The notes under the pieces were generated by a model. It was not told the origin of the DNA and made no database searches. It saw nothing but the letters and a program-made list of their open reading frames with translations. This document shows, piece after piece, positions 11,422-54,516 of a stretch of 64,000 nucleotides of DNA (positions within the stretch are counted from its first letter, which is position 1; each line of letters starts with the position of its first letter). The stretch lies in assembly GCA_900768845.1 (NCBI GenBank), contig CAAGEK010000024.1, forward strand, positions 3,001 through 67,000. Reading direction: 5' to 3'. The stretch comes from Alphaproteobacteria bacterium (GTDB taxonomy: Bacteria; Pseudomonadota; Alphaproteobacteria; CAAGCB01; CAG-977). Both the position numbers and the translations under genes were made by a program.

Positions 11422-11463
11422 AAGCGGACGGGATCAAGCGGAATTTGAAAAAGCTGAAAAAAG

Positions 11464-11500
11464 CGGGAAAACTGCGCCGCGTCGGTCTAGATAAAGGGAA
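11464..11500 (+). repeat. Duplicated 3'-end fragment of a rhuM-like gene (recombination scar)
   Basis: GGGAAAACTGCGCCGCGTCGGT at 11464-11485 is identical to 10393-10414 (end of rhuM). It translates as ...AGKLRRVGLDKGNKQ, a remnant RhuM C-terminus. Confidence 0.55.
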
Positions 11501-11632
11501 TAAACAGGTTGAAACGCAAGAAAAAACAGCCAAATTTTTCATTTTTTGATTGATTTATTTTGTGAAATAATAAAATATAGTTGCAATCAAAACGATGAAA
11601 ACAGTAAGTAGGAATTGATTGAAGGAAAGAAT

Positions 11633-12991: not shown

Positions 12992-13023
12992 AACACAATA
13001 CCAAAAATGATAAGGAGAAATAA

Positions 13024-14298
13024 ATGACAAAAACTAATCAAAAAATCCCTGAGAGGTGGAGTGTTACAAGACTTGAACTTTTAGGAGAATTTTCGAAAGG
13101 TTCAGGAATAACAAAAAATGATTTGATGCAAAACGGTTTGCCTTGTGTCAGATATGCCGAATTATATACAAAATTTGATTTTATAATTCCTTGCTGTATT
13201 TCATTTATATCCGAAGAAACAGCAAAAACGGCGAAACCGATTCGAATTGGAGATATTCTGTTCGCAGGCTCTGGAGAAACAAAGGAAGAAATAGGGAAAT
13301 GTGCTGTTTATATGAATCCTCTTATTGCTTATGCCGGAGGGGATAATATTATTTTCAGAACGACTAATGTAGTTCCTTTATATTTAAGTTTTTATCTAAA
13401 CACTTTAGGGCGGAAACAATTAAATAAACTTGGACAGGGGGATTCTATTGTTCATATTCATTCTAACGATTTGAAAAATGTTATTGTGCCTTTACCCCCA
13501 CTTGCAGAACAAGAGAAGATTGCGGAAATATTGGGGTGTTGGGACGACGGCATCGAAAAATTAAGCCGGTTGATTGAACAAAAGAAGTTGTTGAAAAAAG
13601 GGTTGATGCAACGCCTGTTGTCCGGCAAACAACGACTCTCCGGCTTCTCTGAACCATGGAGTATAAAAAAACTAGGAGAAATGGGGAAATTCGTATCAGG
13701 GGGAACGCCAGACACTGAAAAATCGAAATATTGGGACGGAAATATAATTTGGCTTACTCCCTCGGAAATAACAAAATTATCGACAAGGTTTGTGTCAGAG
13801 AGTGAAAGAAAAATAACAGACTTAGGATTAAAAAATAGTTCTGCTGTTTTGCTGCCAATCGGAAGTTTGATTATTTGTACAAGAGCAACCATTGGAGATT
13901 GTTGTATAAACATAAAAGAGGTTTCTACAAATCAAGGATTTAAAAATTTAATTCCGGAAAACAGCAATATTGATTTTCTATATTATATCATTTCATCACA
14001 TAAAACTGATTTAATCAGAAGAGCAAGTGGAAGCACTTTTCTTGAAATTTCAAAGCACGATATTGAAAAATTAAAATACTCTGTTCCCTCTCTTTCCGAA
14101 CAAAAGGCGATTGCGGACATTCTTTCCAAAGCGGACGAGGAAATCGACTTGCTGACTTCAAAATTGTCCGCGTTAAAATCGCAAAAAAAAGGCTTGATGC
14201 AAAAACTCTTAACCGGTCAAATCCGTGTAAAGGTGGATTCCGCCGCCCCTCTTTGCGAGCGAAGCGAAACAATCCAAAAAAGGCAGGTGACGGAATGA
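13024..14298 (+). CDS. hsdS: Type I restriction-modification specificity subunit (full-length, two TRDs)
   Basis: 424 aa with two variable TRDs and conserved central/C-terminal repeats (LAEQEKIAEILGCWDDGIEKL...; LSEQKAIADILSKADEEIDLL...LLTGQIRV). TRD1 is AT-rich. Confidence 0.85.
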   Translation: MTKTNQKIPERWSVTRLELLGEFSKGSGITKNDLMQNGLPCVRYAELYTKFDFIIPCCISFISEETAKTAKPIRIGDILFAGSGETKEEIGKCAVYMNPLIAYAGGDNIIFRTTNVVPLYLSFYLNTLGRKQLNKLGQGDSIVHIHSNDLKNVIVPLPPLAEQEKIAEILGCWDDGIEKLSRLIEQKKLLKKGLMQRLLSGKQRLSGFSEPWSIKKLGEMGKFVSGGTPDTEKSKYWDGNIIWLTPSEITKLSTRFVSESERKITDLGLKNSSAVLLPIGSLIICTRATIGDCCINIKEVSTNQGFKNLIPENSNIDFLYYIISSHKTDLIRRASGSTFLEISKHDIEKLKYSVPSLSEQKAIADILSKADEEIDLLTSKLSALKSQKKGLMQKLLTGQIRVKVDSAAPLCERSETIQKRQVTE

Positions 14299-14479
14299 GA
14301 AAAAAAATAAATCGCTTCGTCGCTATCGCTTCTGGCAATGACGAAAAAACGGGAAAAGAGAATAATGCAAAAAATAACCTCGGAGTGGTAACGCTACCAA
14401 GGCGCCATAGCACTTTCCGAGGACTATTGAGGGGTAAGATATCATTTTTCACGGATTTGTCAAGGGGGAATGAACGTCA

Positions 14480-15124
14480 ATGTTACAGTTATTGAAAGAA
14501 AGCTTTTCGGAACAACGTTTAAGCACTTATCAGCGAATAGCTGCAACAAAAGGGCTGTCTGAAGGAAAAGCAGTCGAATTATATAAAATCAATATCTTAA
14601 TTTGTGAAGAACTTTATGCCTTTATTGATTGTGTCGAAGTTTGTTTGCGCAATAAGATTCATAAAAAAATGACGGAGGCTTTCAAATGTCAAACATGGTA
14701 CGATTCCGTGCAATGGCTTCCCTTGCATCAGGACAGTCTGGATAACGCTAAAAAAGTTAAGTACCCTCAGGAAATACCTTCAGCTAATGATGTTATAGCC
14801 AGACTGAATTTCGGATTTTGGTGTCATATTTTTGACGCTTTTTATGAGCAACGTTTATGGATTCCGGTCTTACGTTTTCTTTTTCCCAATTATGCAGGCG
14901 CACCGTCGCGAAAGCATATATCCAACGTTTTCAACAAATTATTGAAAATAAGAAACAGAATTGCCCACTTTGAGCCTGTTATTAAAGACGAAGCGGATTT
15001 ACTCAAAAGCTATAATCAACCGGTAGAAGTTATAAATTGGATGAATCCGGAAATATATAATTGGTTTGAAACATTTAACAGATTTAAAGAACTTTACAGA
15101 CAACTGAAGTCTGGCGATTTTTAA
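14480..15124 (+). CDS. Abi_2-family (AbiD/AbiF-like) abortive-infection protein
   Basis: 214 aa. The conserved C-terminal motif LLKIRNRIAHFEPV (RNxxAH) and overall composition match Pfam Abi_2. It sits between hsdS and hsdR. Confidence 0.65.
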   Translation: MLQLLKESFSEQRLSTYQRIAATKGLSEGKAVELYKINILICEELYAFIDCVEVCLRNKIHKKMTEAFKCQTWYDSVQWLPLHQDSLDNAKKVKYPQEIPSANDVIARLNFGFWCHIFDAFYEQRLWIPVLRFLFPNYAGAPSRKHISNVFNKLLKIRNRIAHFEPVIKDEADLLKSYNQPVEVINWMNPEIYNWFETFNRFKELYRQLKSGDF

Positions 15125-15139
15125 AGAAAGGGCTGAAAA

Positions 15140-18100
15140 ATGACCGACTCTTATGTTCATCTTTTCTTTGATGAAGCGTGTCAATCGCAGTTGCCGTGCG
15201 TGGAAATGCTGGTCAATATGGGGTGGGAGTTTTTGCCTCTTGCCGATTTGGAAGCCGCACGGGAAAAAAATCCCGCCAAATCCGTTCTGAAATCCGTTTG
15301 CGAACAGGCTTTGGATAAAATCAACCGTTTTGAACATTTGGACAAGTCTTATCATTTCTCGCCCAAAAACATCGCTAACGCCGTTTTCGATTTGGAAAAT
15401 TTCCCGATGAAGGGGCTGATGACGACTTCCGCAGAAGTTTATGCCGATTTAATCGCCGGACGGGATTTAAAGGAATTTGTGCAAAATAAAGAATCTTCTT
15501 TCGATTTTAGGTTTTTCGATTTTGAGCATATCGAAAACAACCGTTTCCAAGTCGCTGTCGAAGTTCCTTTACGCGGCAAAGAAAACATTCGTCCCGACAT
15601 CGTTTTGTATGTCAACGGCATTCCCCTTGTCGTCATAGAAAACAAAAAATCCGCCGTCAGTGTGCAGGAAGCGGTCGTTCAGCTGATTGATTATCAAGCG
15701 AAGTTTCCGCGCTTTTTTTTGTTTCCTCAGTTGTTAATCGCGACGAACAAATCTGAATTTCTTTACGGAACGACAGGAACGCCTAAAAAATTTTATTCCG
15801 TATGGCAGACGGAGGATTTTGACGAAGAGGCGTGTCTGAACGCGATGACAAAAAAAATCGACGACGCCGTTTATCAAAAAATCCTTGCCGATTTGAACGG
15901 AGCGACTTTCAATCATCGCCAAAATACGGGAAAGAGGCTGATTTCAGAACAGGATCGCGGCGTTTTTGAGCTGTTGCAACCCGTCAGATTGATGCGGCTG
16001 ATTAAAAACTTTATCCTTTATGATGCGGACAAGAAAAAAATCGCCCGCCATCAGCAAATTCGCGCCATTTCCAAAACGATGGACGCCATTCGCTCTTTTG
16101 ACGGTAATTCCCGCAAAGGCGGTTTGATCTGGCATACGCAGGGATCGGGAAAAACGTTGACAATGGTGATGTTGGCAAGAGCGATCTTTTCGGACAAATC
16201 CATCAAAGATCCCCGTGTCATCGTTGTAACGGACAGAAAGGATTTGGACCGGCATATCCGCGACACGTTTAAACAGTGCAAGTTGAAACAGGGCGTTATG
16301 CAGGCGAAATCCGGCGCGGATCTGATAAAAAAACTGGAAGACCTTGAAAAGGTTGAAAATCTGGAAAATCCCAAAGGACGGGTCATTACGACTTTGGTAC
16401 ATAAGTTTGACGCGGCATTTAAAAAACGGTCGACTTTCAAAGACGAAGATCCGAATATCTTTATCTTTATTGACGAAGCGCACAGAACGCAAACGGGACA
16501 GGCCAATGCGAACATGGGAAAAATCCTGCCGAACGCGTGCGTCATCGCTTTTACCGGAACGCCCTTGATGAAAGGGGAACACGCCAGTTATCTGAAATAC
16601 GGGGGTTATATCGACAAATATACGATAGACGAAGCCTTGCACGATAAAAATATTCTGCCGTTGATGTATGAACAACGTCAAATCCGGTTTGAACAGTATG
16701 AAGGGTTGGTCAGGAAAAAGATCGATGATGACGAGGATTTTAAAAAGCTGTCCGATGAAAACAGGAAAAAATTACAGCAGGAAATCAAAGCGCGTGTTCT
16801 GTTCGAGCTTGACGACGTCGTTTCGGATATCGGCAAAGATATACAAAAGCATTTTATGAAAAACGCTTTTCTGACGGATGGAACGCCGAACGGATTTAAA
16901 GCGCAACTTGTCACGCCGTCCAAGGCTTCCGCCGTTAAATTTCAGCATTTTTTTGAAAATCAAACAGATATCGAAACCGCCGTCGTCATTTCAAACGAAG
17001 TCGGTAAAAATGAAAAGGATATTGAAGAAAAAAAAGAAGTTCGCGAGTTCCTGAAAGAAAAAACGGAAAAATCAGGAACATTGGACAAGTACGAAGAACA
17101 ATGTATCGACAGTTTTACGAACAACGATGACGGGATTCAAATTCTGATCGTTGTTGATAAACTCTTGACGGGGTTTGACGCGCCCAGAAACACTTTTTTG
17201 TATTTATTGCGCCCGTTGCAGGATCACAACCTGTTACAGGCGATTGCCCGCGTCAACCGTTTGTGCGATGAAACAAAAGAACAGAAAACGGCGGGATTTA
17301 TCATCGACTATTCCAAAAATCAGGAACATATCACGGACGCGATGCGGTTGTTTTCCAAATACAATCAGGAAGACGTCGCCGGAGCTTTAGAGGATTTGAA
17401 TAAAAAAATCGACGAACTGGACGGTTGTTATCAGGACGTGATCCGCTTGTTCAAACACTTGAAAAACTCGATCGATGAGGAAGAATATATCAGGGCTTTG
17501 GCAGATGAAGAGGCTAGAAAAGATTTTTATAAAAAACTGAACCGCTTTATTTCCGTATTTTCGGAAGCCGTGCTTTTCCGCGATTTTGAAACGACTTTCG
17601 GAAATGAAAAATCGGCTTTGTATAAGAAGCAATCCTTAAAGTTTTTGAACATCAAAAAATCCGCTGTTTGCCGTTATGCCGATGTGGTCGATTTGAGCGT
17701 CTACCGGCAAAAAATATACCGTGTTTTACAATCTGCCGTCAGTGTTGAGGAAATTAAAGAAGTTACTCAAAGCGTCGATATTATGAACCTGAACGGCATG
17801 AAAAAAGATCTGGAAAAGTTTTCTCCGAAATCCGCCGCGGAAGCCATGCTCGCGAACATGACGAGAAAGACTTCCGTTCTGATGGAAACCGATCCCGAAT
17901 TTTATAAGTCTTTTTATGAGAAAATTCAGGAGTTGATTGAAAAGCTGAACAAGGCCGACGCCGATTACGAAGAATTGTTTTCGGATGCGCAAGTCTTACA
18001 GCAGGAATTGATCAACCATGAATGCGAAAAATCTTCCGCAGACAGAACCGCGGATTTGTTCTACCGCAATTTGAGCCCCTTGTTTGAAAAAATCAAAGAT

Positions 18101-18322
18101 CGAAACTTACAGGAGGAAATCGGGAAACTGACGGATTTCTTCAAAAAGAATTTGATTGTCGAATGGTCGGTCAATGATGAAACGCAACGTATGCTCAAAA
18201 CGAAAATCGACGATTATCTGTATGATACTTACGGCGCGATTTTGAACGATACTTCGTGGGATATTGCCGAAGCTTTGATGAATTTGTCTTTGCATAACAA
18301 AGAGCTGTTCGATGTCCGATAA
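15140..18322 (+). CDS. hsdR: Type I restriction endonuclease R subunit (helicase/nuclease)
   Basis: 1060 aa. N-terminal nuclease region (VVIENKK), SF2 helicase motifs I (HTQGSGKTLTM) and II (FIFIDEAHRTQTG), and a C-terminal HsdR helical domain. Confidence 0.9.
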   Translation: MTDSYVHLFFDEACQSQLPCVEMLVNMGWEFLPLADLEAAREKNPAKSVLKSVCEQALDKINRFEHLDKSYHFSPKNIANAVFDLENFPMKGLMTTSAEVYADLIAGRDLKEFVQNKESSFDFRFFDFEHIENNRFQVAVEVPLRGKENIRPDIVLYVNGIPLVVIENKKSAVSVQEAVVQLIDYQAKFPRFFLFPQLLIATNKSEFLYGTTGTPKKFYSVWQTEDFDEEACLNAMTKKIDDAVYQKILADLNGATFNHRQNTGKRLISEQDRGVFELLQPVRLMRLIKNFILYDADKKKIARHQQIRAISKTMDAIRSFDGNSRKGGLIWHTQGSGKTLTMVMLARAIFSDKSIKDPRVIVVTDRKDLDRHIRDTFKQCKLKQGVMQAKSGADLIKKLEDLEKVENLENPKGRVITTLVHKFDAAFKKRSTFKDEDPNIFIFIDEAHRTQTGQANANMGKILPNACVIAFTGTPLMKGEHASYLKYGGYIDKYTIDEALHDKNILPLMYEQRQIRFEQYEGLVRKKIDDDEDFKKLSDENRKKLQQEIKARVLFELDDVVSDIGKDIQKHFMKNAFLTDGTPNGFKAQLVTPSKASAVKFQHFFENQTDIETAVVISNEVGKNEKDIEEKKEVREFLKEKTEKSGTLDKYEEQCIDSFTNNDDGIQILIVVDKLLTGFDAPRNTFLYLLRPLQDHNLLQAIARVNRLCDETKEQKTAGFIIDYSKNQEHITDAMRLFSKYNQEDVAGALEDLNKKIDELDGCYQDVIRLFKHLKNSIDEEEYIRALADEEARKDFYKKLNRFISVFSEAVLFRDFETTFGNEKSALYKKQSLKFLNIKKSAVCRYADVVDLSVYRQKIYRVLQSAVSVEEIKEVTQSVDIMNLNGMKKDLEKFSPKSAAEAMLANMTRKTSVLMETDPEFYKSFYEKIQELIEKLNKADADYEELFSDAQVLQQELINHECEKSSADRTADLFYRNLSPLFEKIKDRNLQEEIGKLTDFFKKNLIVEWSVNDETQRMLKTKIDDYLYDTYGAILNDTSWDIAEALMNLSLHNKELFDVR

Positions 18323-19025
18323 ACAAATATCCGTAGGGCAAAAAATTTATAATTATAACTTGTTGCTGTCTGAACGGAAAACGGCAACGATTTATATTTC
18401 AAACGATGCAAAGATTACTGTAAAAGCTCCGCTCAATGTCAGCATCGGCCGTATAGAAACATTTATCCGGCAAAAAGCAAAGTGGATTGCCGAGCAATTG
18501 GAAGAAGTGGAAAAATACAGGCAAATTTCCGATCGGAACAAATATTTGTCCGGTTCCGCTTTGCTTTATCTGGGGCGACAATACAAAGTCATTGTCAATC
18601 CCGCCCTTGAGCAGGAAAAGGTTCAACTGTTAAAAAACCGGATCGTTATTTTTACGAAACAGAACGTTCAAAACGAAATTCATAACGGATCGCTCGTTAA
18701 GCTTTGGTACGAAAAACGGCAAAAGCGCGTTTTTCGGGAGCGTTTCGCTTTGATTTCCGAGCAATTCCCCGATTTTGAAAATCCGAAACTGGCCGTGATT
18801 AAAATGAAAAACAGATGGGGATGCTATCGTATCAACGGCACGGTCGTTTTAAATCCGGAGCTGATCAAAGCGTCCAAACAATGTATCGACTATGTGCTTT
18901 ATCACGAGTTTTGCCACCATTTTTTCAGAAAACATGATGCGGACTTTTATAAAATGCTTGAAGAAAAAATGCCTGATTGGAAAAAGGTGAAAGAAAAACT
19001 TGAACTGCGATTTACATCAAATTAG
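18312..19025 (+). CDS. YgjP-like DUF45 / M48-family metallopeptidase-like protein
   Basis: 237 aa with HEFCHH (HExxH) near the C-terminus. It overlaps the hsdR stop. This family is frequently the last gene of type I RM operons. Confidence 0.8.
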   Translation: MSDKQISVGQKIYNYNLLLSERKTATIYISNDAKITVKAPLNVSIGRIETFIRQKAKWIAEQLEEVEKYRQISDRNKYLSGSALLYLGRQYKVIVNPALEQEKVQLLKNRIVIFTKQNVQNEIHNGSLVKLWYEKRQKRVFRERFALISEQFPDFENPKLAVIKMKNRWGCYRINGTVVLNPELIKASKQCIDYVLYHEFCHHFFRKHDADFYKMLEEKMPDWKKVKEKLELRFTSN

Positions 19026-19268
19026 TTCCTTTCCGGAACAATTCTTTTTGTGTCGCGTGTTATTTTTGCGGGATTTTCCAATTCCGGAAAAATCGCTTTT
19101 AAATAACCGGTCGGGCATAATCCGGTTTAAATTCATCGTGCCTGACGGAAAAATGCGTCGGGAATGTCCGTAATTATGACAGGAAGTTGCTAAAAACTTT
19201 CTCGTCAAACAAACGGAACGTTTTATCGAATGTTTCGGAATATCGACGCCGGAAGCAAAAACAGGTCA

Positions 19269-22822: not shown

Positions 22823-23054
22823 GGGGGTGTAGGTATTTTTACAGGAAATGACGGTATTTTTTATAGAAAATGTCTCGTCTGATTACGAAATGAGGCCTTT
22901 GAGTTATAAACTTAATGGTTTTATGAAATTCGCTTGAAATATGGTATTACATTGCATACACTTTTCGTAAGCGTTTCGATATCGAATTATCGTTGACGTT
23001 GTTTTTTGGTTAATTGCCTAGGTGACACTTGGGCATAAGAATTTGGAGGGAAAG

Positions 23055-23588
23055 ATGGCTTTTGAAGGCGTAAAAATGACGGAAGAGGATAAGCGATTGG
23101 TGAACTCATGGCCGGAAGAAGCCAGAAAACTCGGTCGCGATTTTTTGGAGTATCGTCTTTTTCGGGGTGATCTATTAACTTCTCATGCATCACGCATGGC
23201 AGTAGATCGTGAAAGAGGATTTTATTTTATACGGAGCGCAGTTGAAAGCTTGGAGCCAGAGGGGCCCCTTGTTAATCCGACATACTTTTTTTATCTTTGG
23301 TGGAATGGCGGATTTATTGAAATATATGCGAAAAGAGAGAGAAAACGTAGGATTATATTGGAAAATGGAAGAGAAAATTATGAAACGTATTATTTGAGAT
23401 ATGATGCATTTCAGATGTATTTACATCAGGAAAAGACAGATTATACAAAAGAATACTTATTAGGTGTCCTTAAAGAGGCGTTTGAGGCTTATAAGATGTC
23501 TGGGAACAATCCTATATTTGATACTTATGTTGAGACGGTAGTCGTTGATTTTGATAAAGTTAAACTGGAAGGCGATTGGAGTAAGTAA
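23055..23588 (+). CDS. Hypothetical protein (AT-rich insert)
   Basis: 177 aa from ATG 23055 with a GGAGGG ribosome-binding site. No recognisable motifs. Low GC. Confidence 0.4.
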   Translation: MAFEGVKMTEEDKRLVNSWPEEARKLGRDFLEYRLFRGDLLTSHASRMAVDRERGFYFIRSAVESLEPEGPLVNPTYFFYLWWNGGFIEIYAKRERKRRIILENGRENYETYYLRYDAFQMYLHQEKTDYTKEYLLGVLKEAFEAYKMSGNNPIFDTYVETVVVDFDKVKLEGDWSK

Positions 23589-23589
23589 T

Positions 23590-23760
23590 ATGACGGATTG
23601 GATTGACAGCATTGAGTGGAATACCCTTGATGATAATGCGATTGTTCGAAAATTAATTGATAATAAGGAGAAAGTAGGTGAGGCGGAAATCCATAGAATT
23701 TTAGATAAACTGTCTGTTGATGTAAATAAATTTGATGCAGTTTATGAAATATATTCCTGA
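23590..23760 (+). CDS. Small hypothetical protein (AT-rich insert)
   Basis: 56 aa (MTDWIDSIEWNTLDD...). Its ATG lies 2 nt after the preceding stop, with a GGAG ribosome-binding site. Low GC. Confidence 0.3.
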   Translation: MTDWIDSIEWNTLDDNAIVRKLIDNKEKVGEAEIHRILDKLSVDVNKFDAVYEIYS

Positions 23761-23867
23761 AAGTCTAATAAAAATATAATACAGTCATTAATTATAATCT
23801 CTTTCTTGTATTGATATGTTTTGTGTGATACGCTGACATAATCAGTATTTACTGAAAGGTATTTTAC

Positions 23868-25148
23868 ATGGTACGTCCGTTCAACACAAGAAAGATTATG
23901 ACAAGTTTATTTTTGTTTCTGGGTGTAATTGCGTCTTGTTCTATGGCAAAGAATGAAAACGTCATGCACCCCGCCGGAAAAGAAAAGGCTGAAAACGTCG
24001 TGCAATCCGCCGGAAAAGAACCGGAAATAAGACCGAGTGATTATTCAAAAACAAAAAAGGAATACGCCGCCTCTTCAGTTCATCCGTTACCGCCATATCC
24101 GACCGAAGAACAACAGAATGAAGTTGTTTTTGACGAAATGAGATATGATGGTATGCGAGAAGCTTTTGAAATAATAAATAACAAATCATATAAAAAAATG
24201 CCTTCGTATGATTGTAATAAAGCGAAAACAGAAGTTGAAAAACTGATTTGTTCGAATGAAACGTTATCCGAATTAGATGCAAAAATGGCTTTATTGCATG
24301 AATATATGCAAGATTTGTATGATTTGGAGCTGACGCCATCCAGAGGGCATTTAGAATGGTTGAAGGCACGCAATAATTTCGAATGTAAGCCAAAAATAGA
24401 AAATAAAACGGACTGCCTTATATCTTTGTATGAGTTAAAAATAAGCAGTCAGTTAGCCGTTATTTTTATGCAACAGTTATATGCTGAAGATAGCATCAGG
24501 AATCGGGAAAATCAAAAAAATAAAAAGTTAAACAGATATTGGTTTGATTTGTTTTTAAGCCAAGGTTTTTCTGTCAATTTCAGGGGGGATTTTTTAGGAA
24601 GTCAGGTTGATTATTTGGGAGGTAGCTGCCCTGTGTTTGTAAGGATGAGGGGAATTTATCATCCTGATTATTTTACGTATGCCCTTGATCATGGCGCGGA
24701 TGTTAATTTGCAAAATAGATACTGTCCGCCGGTTCTATTTTATGCAAGCAGAGATGCAGATGTTGATAAGATTTTAGAAATGGGGGCGGATGTTAATGCA
24801 GTTTCAGGAAGCGGAGAGCCTTTGTTGGTTCATCGTACGGATCTTGCAGAAAAGATATTGCCATTAGGGGCTGATCCGAACAAGGCTAATGAATATGATG
24901 GAGAAACGCCTTTGATGAGGGGGGCGTATTGGATCAAAGCGAATTATTTGCCGGCGTACATTAAGTTGTTGGTCCGATACGGCGCAGATATAACAGCCAA
25001 AAACAAGGAAGGAAAAACCGCATATGACGTTTTGGTCGAAACGTATGACAATCCCAAAGTTTATGAAGATAGAAGACAAGAACTAAAGTTAACGGATGAC
25101 GAAATGAATAAATACTTAGATGAAGCAAAAAAATTATTAAGAAATTAA
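23868..25148 (+). CDS. Lipoprotein with a DUF1311 (LprI/lysozyme-inhibitor-like) domain and C-terminal ankyrin repeats
   Basis: Lipobox LGVIASC. The DUF1311-like cysteine pattern YDCNKAKTEVEKLICSNETLSELDAKMALLHEY...LEWLKARNNFEC. At least three ankyrin repeats (GADVNLQN..., GADVNAVSGSGEPLLVH..., GADITAKNKEGKTAYD). Confidence 0.7.
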   Translation: MVRPFNTRKIMTSLFLFLGVIASCSMAKNENVMHPAGKEKAENVVQSAGKEPEIRPSDYSKTKKEYAASSVHPLPPYPTEEQQNEVVFDEMRYDGMREAFEIINNKSYKKMPSYDCNKAKTEVEKLICSNETLSELDAKMALLHEYMQDLYDLELTPSRGHLEWLKARNNFECKPKIENKTDCLISLYELKISSQLAVIFMQQLYAEDSIRNRENQKNKKLNRYWFDLFLSQGFSVNFRGDFLGSQVDYLGGSCPVFVRMRGIYHPDYFTYALDHGADVNLQNRYCPPVLFYASRDADVDKILEMGADVNAVSGSGEPLLVHRTDLAEKILPLGADPNKANEYDGETPLMRGAYWIKANYLPAYIKLLVRYGADITAKNKEGKTAYDVLVETYDNPKVYEDRRQELKLTDDEMNKYLDEAKKLLRN

Positions 25149-25202
25149 AAAGAACAGGTCAATCCCGAACGGTATGCTCGGGATTGTCCCGAAACGGCGA
25201 TT

Positions 25203-43514: not shown

Positions 43515-43904
43515 ATCTTACATCTTAATGAGCCTAAAAGGTTTCCGTCAATCTGGCGACCTGTATATAAAACTAAAGTTATATTTATAGTTTCTATTAA
43601 AGATTGATATATCCTGAAATGAGTTTTTTTTCGACCTGACGCAAAAAGGAAAAAGTATCCGGATCAGGCGGGTGACGGCCGGTGAAGGAGGGATAAAACC
43701 GGCGGAAGCGGTGAAGCTGTCAGGGAGTGTATCATTTTAGACAATAGGGAAAAATTCAAAAGTGGCGGAGTTCTGCGGTTGTTTTGAAAAAATCGGCGGA
43801 AAAAGAATTTTCTTTTTAGACTCAATTTTGATTAAAAACCGATCGTTAAGCATCACTATTCGCACAGGATCGTCAATAATTCATACATTCACATCGGTGT
43901 TTTT

Positions 43905-44444
43905 ATGAACGGCAACATTGTCGGGAGTCTGCAATTTGGTTATTTGCTTACTCCGAGAGCTATGAAAAAAATCGTTGCGGGAACTGAAATAGGAGAATAT
44001 CTGGAACTTAACCGAATGTGGCTTTCAGACGTTGCTCCAAAAAACAGCGAAAGCCAAGCGATCAGCTACGCATTTAAATATATTAAGCGTGTCTGTCCGA
44101 TGGTCAAGTGGGTTCAGTCATTCGCCGATGAACGGTGCGGTCGTTTGGGCGTTGTTTATCAGGCGTCAAATTTCCTTTATCTTGGTTATCATCTGACGAG
44201 CTTTTTCGAGCTGGATAGCGAAACGTACCATGAAATGCTGCTGACATGTTATAAAAAAGGAGGAAATCGCGCTAATTATCTACGAGCGAATCTTGACCGA
44301 GCCGTTAAGCACACGTTGAGGCAATTTAGGTATATTTACTTTATAAAACAAAAGTATCGAAAACACCTGAATTTTGCGGTTTATCCCTATCCGAGGCCCG
44401 GAGAAGAAAGTTTTAATGAAAAGCTTTTGAAAAAAGCCGCATGA
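43905..44444 (+). CDS. Hypothetical protein (possible acyltransferase-like fold) in an islet adjacent to tRNA-Lys
   Basis: 179 aa, lower GC than flanks. Followed by a clear terminator. No confident family assignment. Confidence 0.45.
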   Translation: MNGNIVGSLQFGYLLTPRAMKKIVAGTEIGEYLELNRMWLSDVAPKNSESQAISYAFKYIKRVCPMVKWVQSFADERCGRLGVVYQASNFLYLGYHLTSFFELDSETYHEMLLTCYKKGGNRANYLRANLDRAVKHTLRQFRYIYFIKQKYRKHLNFAVYPYPRPGEESFNEKLLKKAA

Positions 44445-44471
44445 CGATAAAAAAAACGTGGATGAAAAGAA

Positions 44472-44512
44472 AACGCAGGATAGTTTTAAATTAAATCTAT
44501 CCTGCGTTTTTG
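44472..44512 (+). terminator. Rho-independent terminator
   Basis: CGCAGGATAG...CTATCCTGCG stem followed by TTTTT. Confidence 0.5.
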
Positions 44513-44789
44513 GTATCAATGAACCATTTGAAAAAAGTTAAAACTAAGTTGCGTTTCGGTTAAAACTAACCTGCGCGCTACATGAAAACCGTCTCTTTCA
44601 TTACAGTCCGCTTGTTATGAAAAATGAGTCTAAAAAATCTGACGGAAATGTCTGAAATCATTCACCGCGTTACAGAAGCCGTGTTTCGGGACGGCTTTTC
44701 CGCCTTTTTAAAGGGACGGGGGAGGGGGCGTTCGTCCGGAAACGATGAAGGCCGAAGCGCAGGGAAGCCATCCGTTTTCTGCGGAAATA

Positions 44790-44827: not shown

Positions 44828-44903
44828 TGGTGAGCGTGCCGGGACTCGAACCCGGGGCCACCTGATTAAAAGTCAAGTGCTCTACCAACTGAGCTACACG
44901 CCC
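44828..44903 (-). tRNA. tRNA-Lys (anticodon TTT)
   Basis: Reverse complement GGGCGTGTAGCTCAGTTGGTAGAGCACTTGACTTTTAATCAGGTGGCCCCGGGTTCGAGTCCCGGCACGCTCACCA. Cloverleaf with a 7-bp acceptor stem (one G-U pair), a CTTTTAA anticodon loop, a TTCGAGT T-loop and encoded CCA. Confidence 0.9.
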
Positions 44904-45001: not shown

Positions 45002-45749
45002 TCAGCGGATGAAGTTTGTAAATTCGATTTTTTCCTTTTCCGGAGGCAGAATGCCCGCTTTTTCGGCGGCTTGCTTCATTTTCAAAAAATAAGCCATGTT
45101 CTTTGCCAGAATACGCATATTTTGCATACCCTCCCTGTCCTGACGGACTTCGTCGGGCGTGCCGCCGTGAACCATATTCCAATAACGGCCGGAAATGATT
45201 GGCATTTCCGAAATTTGAAAATATTTGTTCAGCTGATCCAGCGTCGCTGTCGTTCCCGCACGGCGGGCACTGGTGATTGCCGCGGCGGGTTTGTGGCGGA
45301 AAATGTCCCTGCCCGACAGAAACGCCGAAAAGAACACCCTGTCCATAAACGGGACGATAACTCCCGATGCCGAACCGTAATGAACGGGAGAGCCTAAAAT
45401 ATAACCGTCGAATTCCGACGCCTTGTCAACAAAACCGTTGACGCCGTCGTCCAAAACGCATTTACCGAGCTTGGCGCAGGCGCGACAGGCCAGACACGGG
45501 CGGATGGCCTGTGTCCCGATATGGTAAATTTCAGAATCAATCCCTTCTTTTTGCAATTGAGCGGCAATTTCGCTTAATGCCGTGAAAGTGCATCCGTTTT
45601 TGTTCGGTGACCAGCAATACTTTCATTTTTCCCGTCCCTTTATTGTCAGTCCGTTCGTTTTCTCCGGCTGTCGAAGCGGACGCCGAAGCCGGCAACGCGG
45701 CAATCGCCGCCGCCGTCGCAATGGTTTTGATAAATTCACGTCTTTCCAT
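45002..45749 (-). pseudogene. Tat-signal-bearing flavodoxin-like / NADPH-dependent FMN reductase family protein, disrupted by a frameshift in the FMN-binding loop
   Basis: The upstream frame encodes MERREFIKTIATAAAIAALPASASAS (twin-arginine motif RREFIK) followed by ...MKVLLVTE and then stops. The downstream frame continues NKNGCTFTALSEIAAQLQKEGIDSEIYH... (184-aa ORF 45002-45556). The junction at about 45595-45605 lacks the expected GSP loop. Confidence 0.5.
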
Positions 45750-46788
45750 TTCAGTCTTCCGTTCTTGATTTTATCGCATTCATGGTTAAAGAATAGCGGG
45801 AAAGACGTAAAAAAACAGGCCTGTTCCTGTCATAATCTTGCCTGATTCTGTCAAAATCGAAAAAGGACAATTCTGTCAGGAGGCGAAACTGTCGTAAACC
45901 GGAATAATCATTGAAGGCTGTTCGTTTCGGAATCGGAAATGCAATCCGGCAAAGGCGTTTTTTCGTCACGGCAAACGGGAACGTTTCCGGTTGACAGCAT
46001 CAAACTTCCGTCCGGATGATCGACAAAGGCGTATTCAAGCAAATCCGCTCCGATGTGCGCTTTTTCAAATTCCCGAGTGATGTTGCCGGTGCGTTTTCGT
46101 GCCGTTCCTTCCGTTTTCCGCGGATTGACATATAATGTTATCCGGCCGCCGGATTTTCATTCGACAGTTTGACAAGCTTTGCAATCCGGCTGTGCGTAAA
46201 CCGTTTATCCCGTCGCTGTTTTCTTCAAAGAAAAAAGAAGCATCCTGAAACATCCGGTACAGTTTCGGACGGCGGCGGACGATTGTGACGAACGCCGTAA
46301 AATCGTCGCATCTTTTGGATTCGTTATCGGCCTTCCCCGTCCAACGCCGTTTCATTGAGGGCATACCTGAAATAAGGCCGCATTGTCTTGAAAGCGGGAT
46401 TCGAGGTGTTGCGAGCTTTCAACCGGCAATCGCGATATAAAGCCGCATCGGGCTCGGCCGTCAAATACTTGTACGCATTTATGCTTTGCGTTTCCGTTTT
46501 TCGGGCGGGAATGCCTTTGTCCGCAAAGCGGGCTTTGAGGGATTCCGTGCGGCGCGGGCTCAGATCCGTATCGCCTTCGCAGGCTTCCCTTCGATTTTTA
46601 TTTTCGCACTGTCATCGCGACCGGCTTCGGGCGGAAATTCCGCCAACACTTTATCCAAGGCTTTCCGCGTTTTTTCCGACAGGGCGGCCGAGCCTTTTTA
46701 AAAACGGTTTTTTTCGTCGCGTGATTGTCCGATGCGAAGGAAAAACAGGGCGGAAAGCACAGAAAAGCTAAAATAAACAGGATATGTT

Positions 46789-47490
46789 TCATGCGTCGTT
46801 TTTCCCTTTCGCAGGGGTTCGCCTTTTCAAGATTTTCCGGAAAATTTCAAGCAGGGAATTTCCCGAAGAGGGTGGAAGCGAACCTCCCGAAACGGTTTCG
46901 GGATCAAGTTTTGACGCACGGACGGCGGCTTCCATAACAATCGTTCCCGCAATTTCCGGCGGAAGGTTCGTCGTTTTTGCGATGATGATCGCCTGTGCCG
47001 CTCCCGCAAACAGCCAACCCGTCGTCAGGGGATCGACTCCGCGTTTATATTGTCGGCGCACATATTCATACAACGGCGGCCATTGTGTTTTCAACATATC
47101 GAAAACGGGTTCTTGCGGCTGATGTTCTTCCGGAACCGTCAGTTTGCCATAGTCCGGCGTTCCCAAAGTTTGTGCCGCACGTTTTACGATTTCCAAAATA
47201 TCGGGAGGTTTTCCGCCGGCGGCGGCAACGCCCGAAGCGATGATATTCCACACGGACGCGGGAGCTTCCAACAAAGGCTGATTCAGCTCATTGCCAAAGA
47301 AATATGTTTTCCCGTCCGCGGATTTTACCCGAATGAACGCGTCTTTCGCCGGAATCATCCCCGCTCTGACGGCTTCGCGCACGCGAAGCCCGCACAAGCC
47401 CCCAAGATTCCCAAAAGGGTTTCCGGATGCGGATACTTTCGGGACAGGTTTTCTTCGATATACCGTATCGTTTCTTCCGTAACGGTCATA
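46789..47490 (-). pseudogene. Frameshifted hypothetical gene
   Basis: N-terminus MTVTEETIRYIEENLSRKYPHPETLLGILGACAGFACA... from ATG 47490 runs into a stop. The long 243-aa ORF continues in another frame (...REAVRAGMIPAKDAFIRVKSADGKTYFFGNE...). One indel separates them. Confidence 0.35.
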
Positions 47491-47541
47491 TCTTCGTTTC
47501 CTTTTCAAAAGCTCAAGCACCCGATCGGGATTTCCGCCCGT

Positions 47542-48321
47542 TTAAATGCCCGACTGCCTTTTTTTACCGTTTAAGATCGAGAGTTGCATCGGCGGTTTCA
47601 AATAAACTTTTCCCAAATCGACGGCGTCTTTTGCCATTGGAGACGGTTTATGGGAAATTATCGGCGAAGACGGATTTTTTTGGAAATCTTTTAATTTCCG
47701 TTCGGCTTCTTTCGCATTCAAGCCGTGTTCGCCCATTTGCTTTATCGCCGCGGTCAGTTCGTCGGGGGTGACCAAAAAGACGTGTCCGCCTTTTCCGTTT
47801 TTGCCGTGCCAATATTCTTTGGCTTTTTCGTTCATGGCAACGGATTTCTCATCGGCGTCCGGAGGTAAATCTCTGGGAAAAGGTTCTCCGGGATTGCCGA
47901 ATGTCATCGTATAAATCCCGCCTTTACCGGTCGAGCCGTACGGACCGTAAATCGCATGAACGAGATTGGTTTTCGGTAAATCTTTGGCATTGATGATCGC
48001 CACTTTTATATCGGCTTCCCCCCGTGTCCCCGGTTCGCGTACAATGTTGAAAATCTTATCCGTTTGCAATTCTTCCGCCGAAACGACGGCGTCGGTGCCG
48101 ACCCGACGATCCGTTCTCAGTGCAAAAACTTTCCTTCCGGGGTTTCCTTTTTTATTGATTTCTTCCTGATAAGCTCTGTCGGTTCGTGCCAGAATGTTTG
48201 AAATATCGTCCTTTGTCGTGCTTTTTACGGCCTTTGAGCCGATGACCAAAGAATTGCCGTCGGAATGTCTGATTAAATGTTCTTCATTATTTGAAGCGGG
48301 TAAAAATTCTAATTTTTCCAT
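47542..48321 (-). CDS. Hypothetical protein (island at tRNA-Pro)
   Basis: 259 aa from ATG 48321 (MEKLEFLPASNNEEH...). No recognisable family. GC lower than the core genome. Confidence 0.45.
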   Translation of the reverse strand: MEKLEFLPASNNEEHLIRHSDGNSLVIGSKAVKSTTKDDISNILARTDRAYQEEINKKGNPGRKVFALRTDRRVGTDAVVSAEELQTDKIFNIVREPGTRGEADIKVAIINAKDLPKTNLVHAIYGPYGSTGKGGIYTMTFGNPGEPFPRDLPPDADEKSVAMNEKAKEYWHGKNGKGGHVFLVTPDELTAAIKQMGEHGLNAKEAERKLKDFQKNPSSPIISHKPSPMAKDAVDLGKVYLKPPMQLSILNGKKRQSGI

Positions 48322-49215
48322 TATGATTCCCCCTGCATTTTTAACGGATGCAATTATACGCCATATCCGGCGCGAATTCAAATGAAGTGAATGATATTTG
48401 ATCCGTAAAAATTTAAAGGTTCTGATAAAATATGCGGGATGTAATAAACGGATGTTGGGGCTGGTGTGAAACCGTCAATTAGCATGATAATGAACGGAAA
48501 AAACGCGCAACGGATGATAAAATACTGTTTGAGTTTTTGGTATTGGAAAGTGTGTAGATCGGATTGAGCTGACGGATTGTTTTTAAAAAACGCAGACGCG
48601 GATGTTGAAAAATTGATGTTGTTTGCCAAAATCGTCAGGAATCAGTCGAAACTAAAATCACAATCCTGAACGCCCGTCTGTTTCTTGAAATACAAAAGGA
48701 ATTCGGTAGCTTTTATAATTATACTTTGTCATTTTCCCGATAAAAGGTCGTTCATCAATACTTTTCGGTATTTAAAGACCTCGCTATGTCGTTTCCGGAA
48801 GCCGATGCAATGAGTGGAAATATGAAAAATGCGGATTTCAATTTTTCGGAACGACGATAGGTTTCGTCCATTTACAAGCCATGGTAATTACATTTGCAGA
48901 AATAAAGACAATTAAGATAAAAAATCAAATACGTTTAAAAAAACAGCTTTTTAAATAATAAAAAATATATGATTTTTAGATTTCGAATCTCAGTTAATTC
49001 AATAAATCTGCAACAGAGATTTCAGAGAAAAATGTTTGCAATACCGTGATTTTGCACAGCATATTAAGGTAATTCAGGTAATCTTCAATATACTTTTTAT
49101 TATACATACTACTGTTAAAAATGTTTATAATGTTTAAAAATTTAATAAAAAGACTTCCCTTTAGGGAAGTCTTTTTAGGTTTTAGGAATTAAGTCTTTTC
49201 GGAAGAAAGCATTGT

Positions 49216-50280
49216 TTAAATTCTGGTGCTTTGTTTACGGCGCAGAGCTTCTTGCCAACTCATTTTCTCACCTCTGGCCGCAGCGTCAGCCTGCCTGTTA
49301 ACAGCAACAGAGGGATGAACACGCGTGCCGTCAAACTCATCATTTGTCATAAGTCCTCGTTTTGCCAAATCTTTACGAGCTTTGTCTTCATGGCGGTGTA
49401 CTTTCACATAGTGATCGACTTTGTCTTCCATCGCTCCTCTGACGGCAACGGCATTGGCGTTATCTTCATTCATCGCGTTCAATTGCATATTAAGCTGTTT
49501 AGTATTATTAGCCGCTGTGTTCACATTCTCAAGAGCCGCATTATAAGCTTCAGATGCGGGGGCATGGTCTTGCTTAAAAGTTTCAATCATTTCCGTATAA
49601 GGTTTGTTTGCCAACTTCTGCATATACTCATTATTTTCTTTATTTCTAAAGTAATAACCGAATGTGTCTCCCGACCCGACAAGCTTCCGGGTATTTTGAC
49701 AAATATGGTTGCATTGAGCCATCAAATCAACCTTGGCATCAGGGGTGCGTTTTAAACGTTTATCCATTTTATATTTCATCCGCGTGGCAAGCGGCAATTT
49801 TTCATAAGGCGTTTTGAGTTTATAGATATTCTCCGAAGGATGTTTTCCATCCGGCGTGTTTAAACCGGCTTTAATGCACTCCTGCAAAAAACCATAACAA
49901 ATTTCGGCCGTTTCTTTCGGGGGTAAAGCACTCGCCACAGGGCCGAATTTGCCGTCAATCATTTCGCATGTATAACCGTTAATACCGTCAAGTGCTTGTG
50001 GAATGCAACGTGAGCAATAGTCATCGTATGCAGAAACCATTCCTTCAAACTTCCCCTTTTGATCTGCCACATCTCTTTTCTGATCGGTGTTTTTTTCTGC
50101 TTCGGCAATTTCTTTTTGCTTTGTTTCTAATGCCTTCTGGTCATACTGCGGCATTTTGGCAACATATTCGTCGATATGACGACGCGCATCATCAACCGTC
50201 TGGAAATCAGAAATTTTAAATAAACTACCGTATTTAATCTGTAATAGCTGTTTTTCAATATTTGAGTGTTTTTCCGACAT
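49216..50280 (-). CDS. Hypothetical protein (low-GC island)
   Basis: 354 aa from ATG 50280 (MSEKHSNIEKQLL...). Flanked by very AT-rich non-coding DNA (48.4-49.2 kb). No motif recognised. Confidence 0.45.
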   Translation of the reverse strand: MSEKHSNIEKQLLQIKYGSLFKISDFQTVDDARRHIDEYVAKMPQYDQKALETKQKEIAEAEKNTDQKRDVADQKGKFEGMVSAYDDYCSRCIPQALDGINGYTCEMIDGKFGPVASALPPKETAEICYGFLQECIKAGLNTPDGKHPSENIYKLKTPYEKLPLATRMKYKMDKRLKRTPDAKVDLMAQCNHICQNTRKLVGSGDTFGYYFRNKENNEYMQKLANKPYTEMIETFKQDHAPASEAYNAALENVNTAANNTKQLNMQLNAMNEDNANAVAVRGAMEDKVDHYVKVHRHEDKARKDLAKRGLMTNDEFDGTRVHPSVAVNRQADAAARGEKMSWQEALRRKQSTRI

Positions 50281-50451
50281 GGCGTCCTCCTTAGCAACAA
50301 TCCATAAGCAATAACAGTGCAATTATATCCACAACACTACAATTGTGTCAAGATATTCTGCGATTTATTGTGAGGTCTCTTTAAGTTATAGACAGGAAAA
50401 ACCCATTTAAATTTGGACAACTAAACTGTTCCTGAAACAAGGGGAACAGGC

Positions 50452-50906
50452 TTGACCGGCGAAGAAACAATCGTATCCGCTTACAGGCGTGAGTGGAAAC
50501 GGTTTCAACAATATGGCGTTCCCCAAGCCTTCTACGCGGACGGACGCAATATGTATCATCTTGATCCCGATAAAGAGCATCACTTCTTTACAATGATGTG
50601 CGAAGTCTTGGGAATACGCGTCATTCCGCCTCCTTCTCCACAAGCTAAAGAATGTGTCGAACGATACGACGGAAAGACGCCTTATCCCTTTAACGAAACT
50701 TGACGGAGTACAAGATACGAAAAATCGCAAACGAATACTTGCAACAATATCCGATCGCTCATACGCCTTTGCCGCAATGGGCTAACAAATGTCTGATTCA
50801 TGGAAGTCCACTTAAAAATAATGATTGCACGGTTTGCTACAAGGGAAAATTTATCAAATCATCCCTATGTTCAAACGTACTCCGGCTGTCAAAAAATGTA
50901 CCGTAA
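50452..50906 (+). mobile_element. Remnant of an IS transposase (rve integrase-core C-terminal fragment)
   Basis: The 83-aa ORF ...AFYADGRNMYHLDPDKEHHFFTMMCEVLGIRVIPPPSPQAKECVERYDG... resembles the end of DDE integrase-core domains (GI+...PYSPQ.NG.VER). No intact transposase or terminal inverted repeats were found. Confidence 0.45.
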
Positions 50907-51065
50907 AAAAACTCTTTCAGGTCATATCTCCATCACCTGTAGAGACCGCTTTTTCCATAATCTGTCACCCCTTAAACTGTCCAAATTTAAAGGAGATTTA
51001 ACACAAATACGGTTTGTTAAATGTTTAAGAGAGGGGCGCGTCCGGTCTTTTGTTCGCAAGCTTTG

Positions 51066-51863
51066 TCAGTTGAAAATCAGCTCGTAAATCATATCGGGCT
51101 CTTCTGTCGTTTCGGCAGGCCTGTTTTTCCAGAGCTTTATGCGGATTGAAGCGGGCAGGGCCGTCAGGAAAAAATGGTTGCGGCTTTCATAAGGCGAATA
51201 ATTATTGCATCCTTGTCGGGCTTTGCAGGAATAACCGCGGTGAAAAAATCCTTGCGTCGGCGTAACGTCTGTCGACAGATTGACGCTTTCTTTAAAGCGG
51301 ATGTTGTGTGTTTTATCGGCAAAGGCGTACCCGTATCCCAAGTCGTTGGCGTTTGCGTCTTGAAGAATGATTGCTGAAAAAAAACGGTTTTTACGGTAGA
51401 AAGCCGTGTAATTTATATAAACGGACAGCGTATTTTCCGGTTCGTTGTAAGCGGCGCGGTAGGGAATCAGGTAATCGGCTTCGGAACATCCCGTCTTTGA
51501 ATAAAAGGAAAAAGACAGCATACTGACGTAAAATAACAGTTCGGGGTTTAAAATCCCGACGCTTTCCCGAGAAAGGCCTTTGCCGATGTCTTGCGATCCG
51601 TTCACGCCGAAACAGGTGATTTCATAAGCACTGATCCACGGCAAGCCGTCTTCGATCTGAAAAACGCGGTCGGCGGGGCGGTAAGGAGTGCCGTTTCCGA
51701 ATACGGGTGAATCGTTTACGGCGGCGATGCGGCGGTTCAAAATTTCTTTTTTGCTTAACCCGCTGAACGCTTGCATTTTTTTGAGCCGGATTTCCGTACT
51801 TTGCGCGCCGGAAGCCGAAAAACACATCAAGAGAAAAAGAAAAACACAACGCCGCATTGTCAT
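51066..51863 (-). CDS. Secreted hypothetical protein
   Basis: ATG 51863 gives the signal peptide MTMRRCVFLFLLMCFSASGAQS. About 265 aa with aromatic-rich beta-like composition. The longer ORF extension would overlap tRNA-Pro and is rejected. Confidence 0.5.
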   Translation of the reverse strand: MTMRRCVFLFLLMCFSASGAQSTEIRLKKMQAFSGLSKKEILNRRIAAVNDSPVFGNGTPYRPADRVFQIEDGLPWISAYEITCFGVNGSQDIGKGLSRESVGILNPELLFYVSMLSFSFYSKTGCSEADYLIPYRAAYNEPENTLSVYINYTAFYRKNRFFSAIILQDANANDLGYGYAFADKTHNIRFKESVNLSTDVTPTQGFFHRGYSCKARQGCNNYSPYESRNHFFLTALPASIRIKLWKNRPAETTEEPDMIYELIFN

Positions 51864-51962
51864 GTCCTTGCCGTTTGAGGAAAAGCCGGACATTTTAAAA
51901 GGGGCACAAGAAAAAATGCATGACCGGCCGCCGAAAATAAAAAGGGCTTTGCCTGTTTGAAA

Positions 51963-52042
<80 letters not shown>

Positions 52043-53703: not shown

Positions 53704-54243
53704 TCAGGCTTTTTTCTTCGGCAACCATTTTTTAACGGCGACCGCTTTGCCCGTTTGGGATCGCATGACCTTCGTACCGGCGAATTTTTCCGCGGCGGGC
53801 GTTGCCGGAGTATTTTTGCCCTGCATATAAAAATCCGTCATTTCGTTTATGTCTATGACGGATCCTTCGCCTTTGGCAAACGCGGCGGCGTACGGTTCGT
53901 GGGTTGCAATCAGTCTTGCCAGATAATCCGCCGAATGCGCGCCGTATTTCCGCCAGATCGTCTGTAAAAGGGCTTCCGTCGTCCGGTCGAACGCCGTTTT
54001 TTTGACCAAAGGCCGTCCCGAAGCATAGATTTTATAGCTGTTCGGTTCGACGGGGCCCCGATCCGTTGCGATGAAAACCGAAGGCATCAACATTTCCCCG
54101 CCCGTCATGGCGGCATAATATCCTTGCGACAGAAACATCAGGAATTGCATCTTTGCCGGTTGCAGATACTCTTTGTCGTTTAATGCGGTGTCTATGAACC
54201 ATTCCGCAACATCGAAAACGGATTGAGCGGCGGTTTTTGTCAT
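53704..54243 (-). CDS. Panacea-domain (DUF4065 / SocA / GepA-like) protein, putative antitoxin with a ~70-aa C-terminal extension
   Basis: 179 aa from ATG 54243. SVFDVAEWFIDTA...LQPAKMQFLMFLSQGYYAAMTGGEMLMPSVFIATDRGPVEPNSYKIY matches the Panacea core (L.KLQKLLYyAQGW.LA.TG..LF...FEAW..GPV.P.VY). Confidence 0.6.
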   Translation of the reverse strand: MTKTAAQSVFDVAEWFIDTALNDKEYLQPAKMQFLMFLSQGYYAAMTGGEMLMPSVFIATDRGPVEPNSYKIYASGRPLVKKTAFDRTTEALLQTIWRKYGAHSADYLARLIATHEPYAAAFAKGEGSVIDINEMTDFYMQGKNTPATPAAEKFAGTKVMRSQTGKAVAVKKWLPKKKA

Positions 54244-54516
54244 GAAAATATCCTCGGTTTGATTCTTTCGGGGAATGTTGCGCGATTTTTCCGGTAAAGA
54301 AAAGACGAAAATCCGTTCGTGCGTTTTTTTTTGCACGCGGCGAAGGTTTTAAGCACCCGAAACGTTATGAATCATGGACAAGTCCGAATTAAAAGGATAG
54401 TATGTAAACCGTTTTTTTAGTGCTTCGGACGCGGACACGGCCGACGGCGGCATGACATCCCCCCGAAGTGCTGTAAAGTTATGAACATCAACGGATTTGA
54501 AACAGAGGTCTTCAAT

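Follow-up and report, generated by a model that had tools for sequence, protein, structure and literature searches.

A low-GC patch with an insertion-sequence remnant beside tRNA-Pro, and three uncharacterised protein families, in an uncultured gut alphaproteobacterium

Genomic islands linked to tRNA genes are bounded on one side by the tRNA, which turns its 3' end towards the element, deviate in composition across their whole length, and come with an integrase, an attachment (att) direct repeat and an empty site. In this work, we compare with such islands the interval at 47.5-52.0 kb of a 64,000-nucleotide stretch from an uncultured alphaproteobacterium (contig CAAGEK010000024.1, positions 3,001 to 67,000; the whole stretch is called the window below), where a tRNA-Pro gene is followed by three protein-coding genes (C, B and A), an insertion sequence (IS) remnant and an AT-rich spacer, and which the original prediction, made from the DNA letters alone, had read as a decayed integrative island. 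We describe the anatomy and composition of the locus, the rarity of its protein families, their neighbourhoods and the differences between strains, and infer from there the direction and mechanism of a transfer and the functions that the genes may have. On balance we lean towards reading the interval as a mosaic at a recurrent tRNA-Pro synteny breakpoint, with a 2.7-kb IS-scarred patch in it, and not as one integrative island.

Like tRNA-linked islands, the patch lies directly 3' of a tRNA, has a low guanine-cytosine (GC) content and an IS remnant, and differs in content between species, and a foreign restriction-modification (R-M) cassette occupies the same site in the related species L012 (L-numbers such as L002, L003, L012 and L037-L050 denote compared contigs or loci from other strains or related species). 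Unlike them, the locus has no integrase and no att direct repeat, no empty site was seen in the relatives compared, only 2.7 kb of it is compositionally deviant, the flanking genes that would be its cargo appear to be lineage-conserved residents, and housekeeping genes follow the tRNA in most relatives, which is how a rearrangement breakpoint behaves.

The feature is a routine one, acquired or relocated DNA forming a small, IS-scarred patch where synteny breaks beside a tRNA. Its modest value is descriptive, as it brings to light three uncharacterised protein families of uncultured gut Alphaproteobacteria, two of which (A and B) have confident predicted structures. That the three open reading frames (ORFs) have no recognisable family had already been proposed, and single-sequence and family-profile searches of A, B and C agree, with no meaningful match in Pfam, NCBIfam, PHROGs, PADLOC or PDB sequences and with coiled-coil noise, for B, as the sole matches. 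All three families are also absent from IMG/VR viral contigs and PLSDB plasmids. The window itself is 100% identical to a 104.5-kb human-gut metagenome scaffold (European Nucleotide Archive ERZ28566611, scaffold_114), and its nearest named relatives are uncultured Alphaproteobacteria metagenome-assembled genomes (MAGs).

The foreign-looking patch and gene B

The backbone of the window has a GC content of about 0.51, and its 43 long ORFs have a median GC at third codon positions (GC3) of 0.575 (standard deviation 0.10). Against this background the GC content is clearly low only across roughly 48.3-51.06 kb, which comprises the spacer (0.33), gene B (0.42) and the IS remnant (0.42). The proposed low-GC island at 47.54-51.96 kb thus holds for this central part only, as genes A (GC 0.46, GC3 0.49) and C (GC 0.48, GC3 0.55) are near-native. 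The AT-rich non-coding DNA of about 0.9 kb placed at 48.4-49.2 kb is there as described: the gap at 48322-49215 has a GC content of 0.33 that falls to 0.24 at 48.85-49.15 kb, compared with 0.49 in the gene-free stretch at 45557-46788. The spacer proper (48382-49145, no strand assigned; GC about 0.32, minimum 0.24) holds no gene, RNA family or database match; in the spacer and the IS region, RNA-family searches gave just sub-threshold matches on a terminator hairpin, and neither spacer DNA nor IS DNA has a match in phage or plasmid records. That the spacer is a relic of mraY, or of the 258-aa gene that partners B elsewhere (see below), was rejected, as tblastn gave no match at E values up to 50. 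An 83-aa spacer ORF was compared with the 84-aa gene that precedes the homologue of A in L040, and the two are unrelated.

Gene B (49216-50280, minus strand) encodes a 354-aa soluble protein whose predicted structure is a long antiparallel coiled-coil hairpin with a helical head (predicted local distance difference test (pLDDT) score 88.5). It is self-contained: a sequence scan places a perfect sigma-70 consensus promoter (TTGACA-18-TATAAT, 12/12) at 50322-50351 on the same strand, the strong ribosome-binding site AAGGAGGA lies 6 nt before the ATG, and an inverted-repeat scan finds a strong intrinsic terminator (49146-49177, minus), with a 14-bp stem and then a T-run, behind the gene. Its family is very rare: a word-indexed search of 5.8 billion proteins gave 2 homologue clusters, and an exhaustive profile search of 1.84 billion representatives gave 13 hits, of which about 9 span the full length.

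We inspected B homologues in four other lineages (L037, L038, L048 and L049/L050), where they are 28-45% identical to B and stand, in four out of four, between a divergent secreted protein of 257-262 aa and mraY-ftsW-murB-ftsQ-ftsA-ftsZ; a scan of these homologous loci found no terminator between the B homologue and mraY. The division and cell wall (dcw) cluster is compact in these lineages, with no intervening murD, murG or murC (9142-18224 in L037), and the secreted partner, of an unrecognised family, is 51-57% identical among the lineages compared. These lineages are likewise Alphaproteobacteria MAGs, with a genome GC content of 0.40-0.47 and a B-gene GC content of 0.40-0.42. The window copy, with a GC content of 0.42 within the 0.51 backbone and a GC3 of 0.40 (1.7 standard deviations below the window median), has neither mraY nor the secreted partner gene beside it anywhere in the window.

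B is alike to accessory genes of the dcw cluster in that its homologues lie directly upstream of mraY-ftsW-murB-ftsQAZ, and to many division scaffolds in being a predicted soluble coiled-coil protein; it is unlike the known dcw proteins, none of which it resembles in sequence or in specific structural features, and the window copy is detached from the cluster, with its own promoter and terminator. We consider it probably a coiled-coil protein linked to the cell envelope or to division, and the strict position that its homologues keep in front of a compact dcw cluster offers a lead, open to testing, towards a factor for division or the envelope that is specific to the lineage. In the window it is probably now a stand-alone gene, which its consensus promoter would express well.

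Next to B lies the IS remnant (50398-50999, no strand assigned), a 602-bp, internally deleted member of the ISNCY family. It is delimited by 22-nt imperfect inverted repeats (50398-50419 and 50978-50999; 19/22 matching), the core of which, CATTTAAATTTGGACA, occurs at just these two sites of the window, compared with 0.11 expected by chance. Between them a transposase pseudogene fragment (50452-50703, plus strand) matches the ISNCY model NF033594, which has 368 positions, over positions 167-242 (E value 1.2e-8), a match far below the full-length cut-off that leaves about 76 of the 368 positions. The transposase remnant had been called C-terminal and extended to 50906; a remnant it is, of the middle third of the protein and confined to 50452-50703, as the stretch at 50700-50906 is unmatched and the remaining IS frames have no hit. 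The fragment is likewise unmatched in plasmid records. Compared with strain L002, the IS remnant has accumulated 3 indels and 11 single-nucleotide polymorphisms per 0.5 kb (0-2 in gene B and the spacer), and given these indels between strains the element is dead.

With its NF033594 fragment and terminal inverted repeats of about 22 nt, the remnant resembles ISNCY elements and their internally deleted derivatives, of the kind known as miniature inverted-repeat transposable elements. It departs from intact ISNCY elements in being only 602 bp long, in having lost most of the transposase, so that no intact transposase ORF is left, and in being present as a single copy in the window. The flanks of the inverted repeats show no obvious target-site duplication, and the outer repeat ends are not exactly fixed. 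A third repeat-like site on the GC boundary (48404-48419), which would have bounded the spacer and B together, was rejected, as it has 3 mismatches in 16 positions and does not exceed chance, with 4 matches compared with 1.3 expected.

Since gene B has a donor-like GC content, lacks its usual neighbours, adjoins an IS remnant and brings its own promoter and terminator, we suggest that it was acquired from a lower-GC relative, or relocated, by IS-associated recombination. Under this reading only about 2.7 kb (48.3-51.06 kb) would look foreign, namely the AT-rich spacer, the self-contained gene B and the dead ISNCY element. B would have come from a lower-GC relative among the uncultured Alphaproteobacteria, in which it keeps a constant place next to the mraY-ftsW-murB-ftsQAZ cluster, and IS-associated recombination or transposition would then have put it at its present site; the IS would later have lost most of its transposase and would now be drifting. 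Genes A and C would be resident, lineage-specific genes of gut Alphaproteobacteria, brought beside the patch by the extensive rearrangement typical of the clade, with the stretch to the left (A, X and an FMN reductase gene) under relaxed selection in this species.

Several points weigh against this. The protein is rich in Lys, Asn and Glu, and this composition accounts for part of the low GC content of the gene (GC at second codon positions, GC2, 0.35). Its nearest homologue is just 45% identical, which is far from a recent donor, and both the donor and the direction of the transfer are what we infer. The part of the IS in moving B is circumstantial, because we found neither a target-site duplication nor a second IS copy, and the apparent displacement of B is judged within the 64-kb window rather than the whole genome.

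In an alternative that we hold to be rather improbable, nothing is foreign and native DNA has been shuffled by chromosomal rearrangement. B would then have been inherited vertically and moved out of the dcw cluster, with a low GC content that reflects amino-acid composition and high expression, and the spacer would be a long, promoter-rich intergenic region. Gene order is indeed poorly conserved across the clade, the lineages that bear B are likewise Alphaproteobacteria, B shows 100% conservation across 7 contigs of the species, and its low GC2 fits. Against this stand a GC3 as far below the window median as given above and close to that of homologues from genomes of 40-47% GC, the absence of the B family from almost all gut Alphaproteobacteria that carry A or C, the IS remnant that abuts B, and a 0.9-kb spacer whose GC content of 0.24-0.38 is far outside that of other intergenic DNA here.

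The tRNA-Pro boundary in related species

The tRNA-Pro(TGG) gene (51963-52039, minus strand; ARAGORN, Rfam 66.8 bits) has its 3' end at 51963 and the region at lower coordinates, so that its 3' end faces the region as originally predicted. It is identical in 77 of 77 positions to the tRNA of L012 and closes a block conserved in six related species (L012 and L043-L047), which runs NTP-transferase, YdbH-like, a 210-aa protein, a 307-aa protein, DUF192 and tRNA-Pro. The anchor proteins of this block are 70% (L012, DUF192), 75% (L043, 307-aa protein) and 48-54% (L044-L047, 307-aa protein) identical to those of the window. The gene for the 210-aa protein (53704-54336, minus) matches PHROG 1281 (E value 3e-16), and its L012 orthologue has a weak match to the SocA/Panacea antitoxin domain.

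In all six species the similarity to the window breaks off precisely at the tRNA 3' end. The DNA beyond it differs in every one of them and consists mostly of housekeeping genes: cyclophilin-like, LysR, glycerate kinase and HAD genes in L043, and tRNA-Asp, glucokinase, RNase J, tRNA-Val, Fe-ADH and alanine racemase in L045 and L046. In L012 it is a low-GC (0.33-0.36) DpnII-type R-M cassette, followed by UvrA-like, GmrSD and ankyrin genes. This cassette (10531-13750), directly 3' of tRNA-Pro, encodes a D12 Dam-like methylase, an N6_N4 methylase and a DpnII endonuclease, and has no att repeat either.

As the DNA past the tRNA differs in every relative, the tRNA-Pro 3' flank is, on the evidence of these alignments, a recurrent breakpoint that at times receives foreign DNA. 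Comparison of the tRNA-Pro locus, proposed with the original prediction as a check, yields a boundary of variable DNA at the tRNA 3' flank, and showed no empty site and no shared distal flank among the six related species. Within the species the region is present in all contigs compared. Variable DNA past the tRNA is equally compatible with a rearrangement breakpoint and with an integration site.

We consider it quite unlikely that the whole of 47.5-52.0 kb is one decayed island that entered at the tRNA-Pro 3' end through a site-specific recombinase, with the integrase and att sites since lost and with A, B and C as its cargo, possibly effectors or toxins. The orientation of the tRNA, the break of synteny exactly at the tRNA in all relatives, the clearly foreign low-GC R-M cassette in the same position in L012 and the presence of an IS remnant and pseudogenes all speak for it. 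However, Pfam and NCBIfam searches detect no recombinase (integrase) or remnant of one in A, B, C, X or the IS pieces, nor in stop-to-stop pieces of 45.5-46.8 kb and of the spacer. The direct repeat of the tRNA 3' end that had been expected near 47.5 kb is not there either, with no match of at least 12 nt in 43-52 kb and, by exact k-mers, seeded repeats and fuzzy searches, none at up to 7 mismatches in 30 anywhere in the window or L012. Composition does not deviate across the whole interval, given the near-native GC3 of A and C, and the families of these two genes occupy core loci in other species, never together, and are absent from the viral and plasmid collections; no relative offers an empty site or shared distal flank. 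Of the decayed integrative island, decay is borne out by the IS remnant and frameshifts, and integration is not. A tRNA, a low GC content and an IS remnant are by themselves insufficient to call an integrative island.

Genes A and C

Gene C (51066-51863, minus) encodes a 265-aa protein with a classical N-terminal signal peptide, MTMRRCVFLFLLMCFSASGA|QS, in line with the earlier view that this third ORF is secreted. Its family comprises 64 homologue clusters, 34-66% identical, in gut Alphaproteobacteria and Gastranaerophilales, and has the motif S-C-x5-GCNNYSP. Some homologues have a zinc ribbon and a transmembrane helix joined N-terminally to the domain, and these fusions point to an extracytoplasmic, presumably disulfide-containing domain. 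The C homologues occupy unrelated housekeeping loci and, depending on the species, adjoin gyrB and nrdDG, PFOR or Pif1.

Gene A (47542-48321, minus), preceded by a promoter-like site (48353-48381, minus; sequence scan), encodes a 259-aa protein of a well-conserved, lineage-specific family with 39 homologue clusters (46-77% identity) in gut Alphaproteobacteria, which adjoin secE-nusG or lie near dnaG-rpoD. Families A, B and C never co-occur elsewhere. Many His, Arg, Lys and Asp residues are invariant across the A family, among them H19, K30, H122 and H180, and the predicted structure is a confident alpha/beta fold (pLDDT 91.8, predicted template modelling score 0.84). We take A to be probably a cytoplasmic, enzyme-like protein. 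Foldseek returned no hit at E ≤0.001 and no significant solved relative for this fold. Its resemblance to small RNase toxin folds (CdiA-CT of Y. kristensenii, PDB 5e3e; ParE/RelE-type; MafB/YxiD) is sub-threshold, and because no Foldseek hit reaches that E value we treat the modelled likeness as a lead, not as membership. The likeness is weakened further, as A comes with neither a secretion or delivery domain nor a partner gene that is conserved. A also differs from these toxins in its length of 259 aa with extra helical elements and in its strong conservation at core loci. The suggestion that the proteins could be effectors or toxins finds no evidence above threshold, and below it a structural hint for A alone.

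Downstream of A lies gene X (46789-47489, minus), a protein gene without a family match. That A and X form a cytoplasmic RNase-type toxin-immunity (or toxin-antitoxin) pair, which would make the locus a small conflict module, is very improbable, since X following A by about 50 nt, frameshifts of each of the two in some strain and the many invariant His, Arg and Lys residues of A are set against the missing Foldseek hits and delivery domain, the absence of any PADLOC hit, a downstream gene that differs per species and is unrelated to X (a 265-aa protein in L040, an IS in L042), and 77% identity across species at housekeeping loci, which is unlike fast-evolving toxin modules.

A bolder possibility, which we regard as a long shot, takes two forms. 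The B family would be an unrecognised coiled-coil component of the division and peptidoglycan machinery in a clade of uncultured, host-associated Alphaproteobacteria, with a horizontally transferred, strongly promoted, stand-alone copy in the window; and A would represent a new, well-conserved family of cytoplasmic enzymes, with a distant relationship between its core and small RNase toxin folds.

Strain differences and neighbouring loci

Strains of the same species that we compared are 98.5-99.7% identical to the window. Gene A, intact in the window, is frameshifted by an additional T at 48182 (around codon 46) in two independent metagenome samples (L002 and L003), and because both have the same +1 frameshift the gene appears dispensable in this species. 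Gene X is the reverse case, frameshifted in the window by a 13-bp deletion at about 47383 compared with an intact 237-aa version in L002. The same holds for an NADPH-dependent FMN reductase gene (45002-45749, minus), which an 8-bp deletion at about 45607 frameshifts in the window and which in L002 is intact, with 251 aa, a Tat-like signal and a full-length Pfam match. In the 1.2 kb at 45557-46788 no gene is called, and neither Pfam, searched with the ORF pieces, nor Rfam gives a hit; the stretch may be what is left of a gene after complete decay, or an RNA that has escaped recognition. To judge from the frameshifts between strains, the indels in the IS remnant and this gene-free stretch, the neighbourhood is under relaxed selection and decay is ongoing.

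Further to the left, a Mom-family gene (43905-44444, plus strand; PF25680, E value 2e-60) lies in a segment of about 960 bp (43718-44680) that is missing from the same-species strain L002. The segment is low in GC (GC3 0.42), is flanked by 30-nt imperfect inverted repeats (43813-43842 and 44607-44636) and lies about 140 bp 3' of tRNA-Lys(TTT) (44828-44903); it has the look of a cassette beside a tRNA that carries one gene and varies between strains.

The window has other low-GC patches, so that they are no rarity here, and the GC content is even lower at 11-19 kb and 23-25 kb. The first of these belongs to a type I restriction-modification island at about 7-19 kb (7100-19100), with a RhuM/Fic protein, HsdS, HsdR and a YgjP-like peptidase, in which GC falls to 0.29 and GC3 to 0.20. 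The second, also a stronger low-GC region (23000-25200) than the patch beside tRNA-Pro, contains an ankyrin-repeat gene at 23868-25148.

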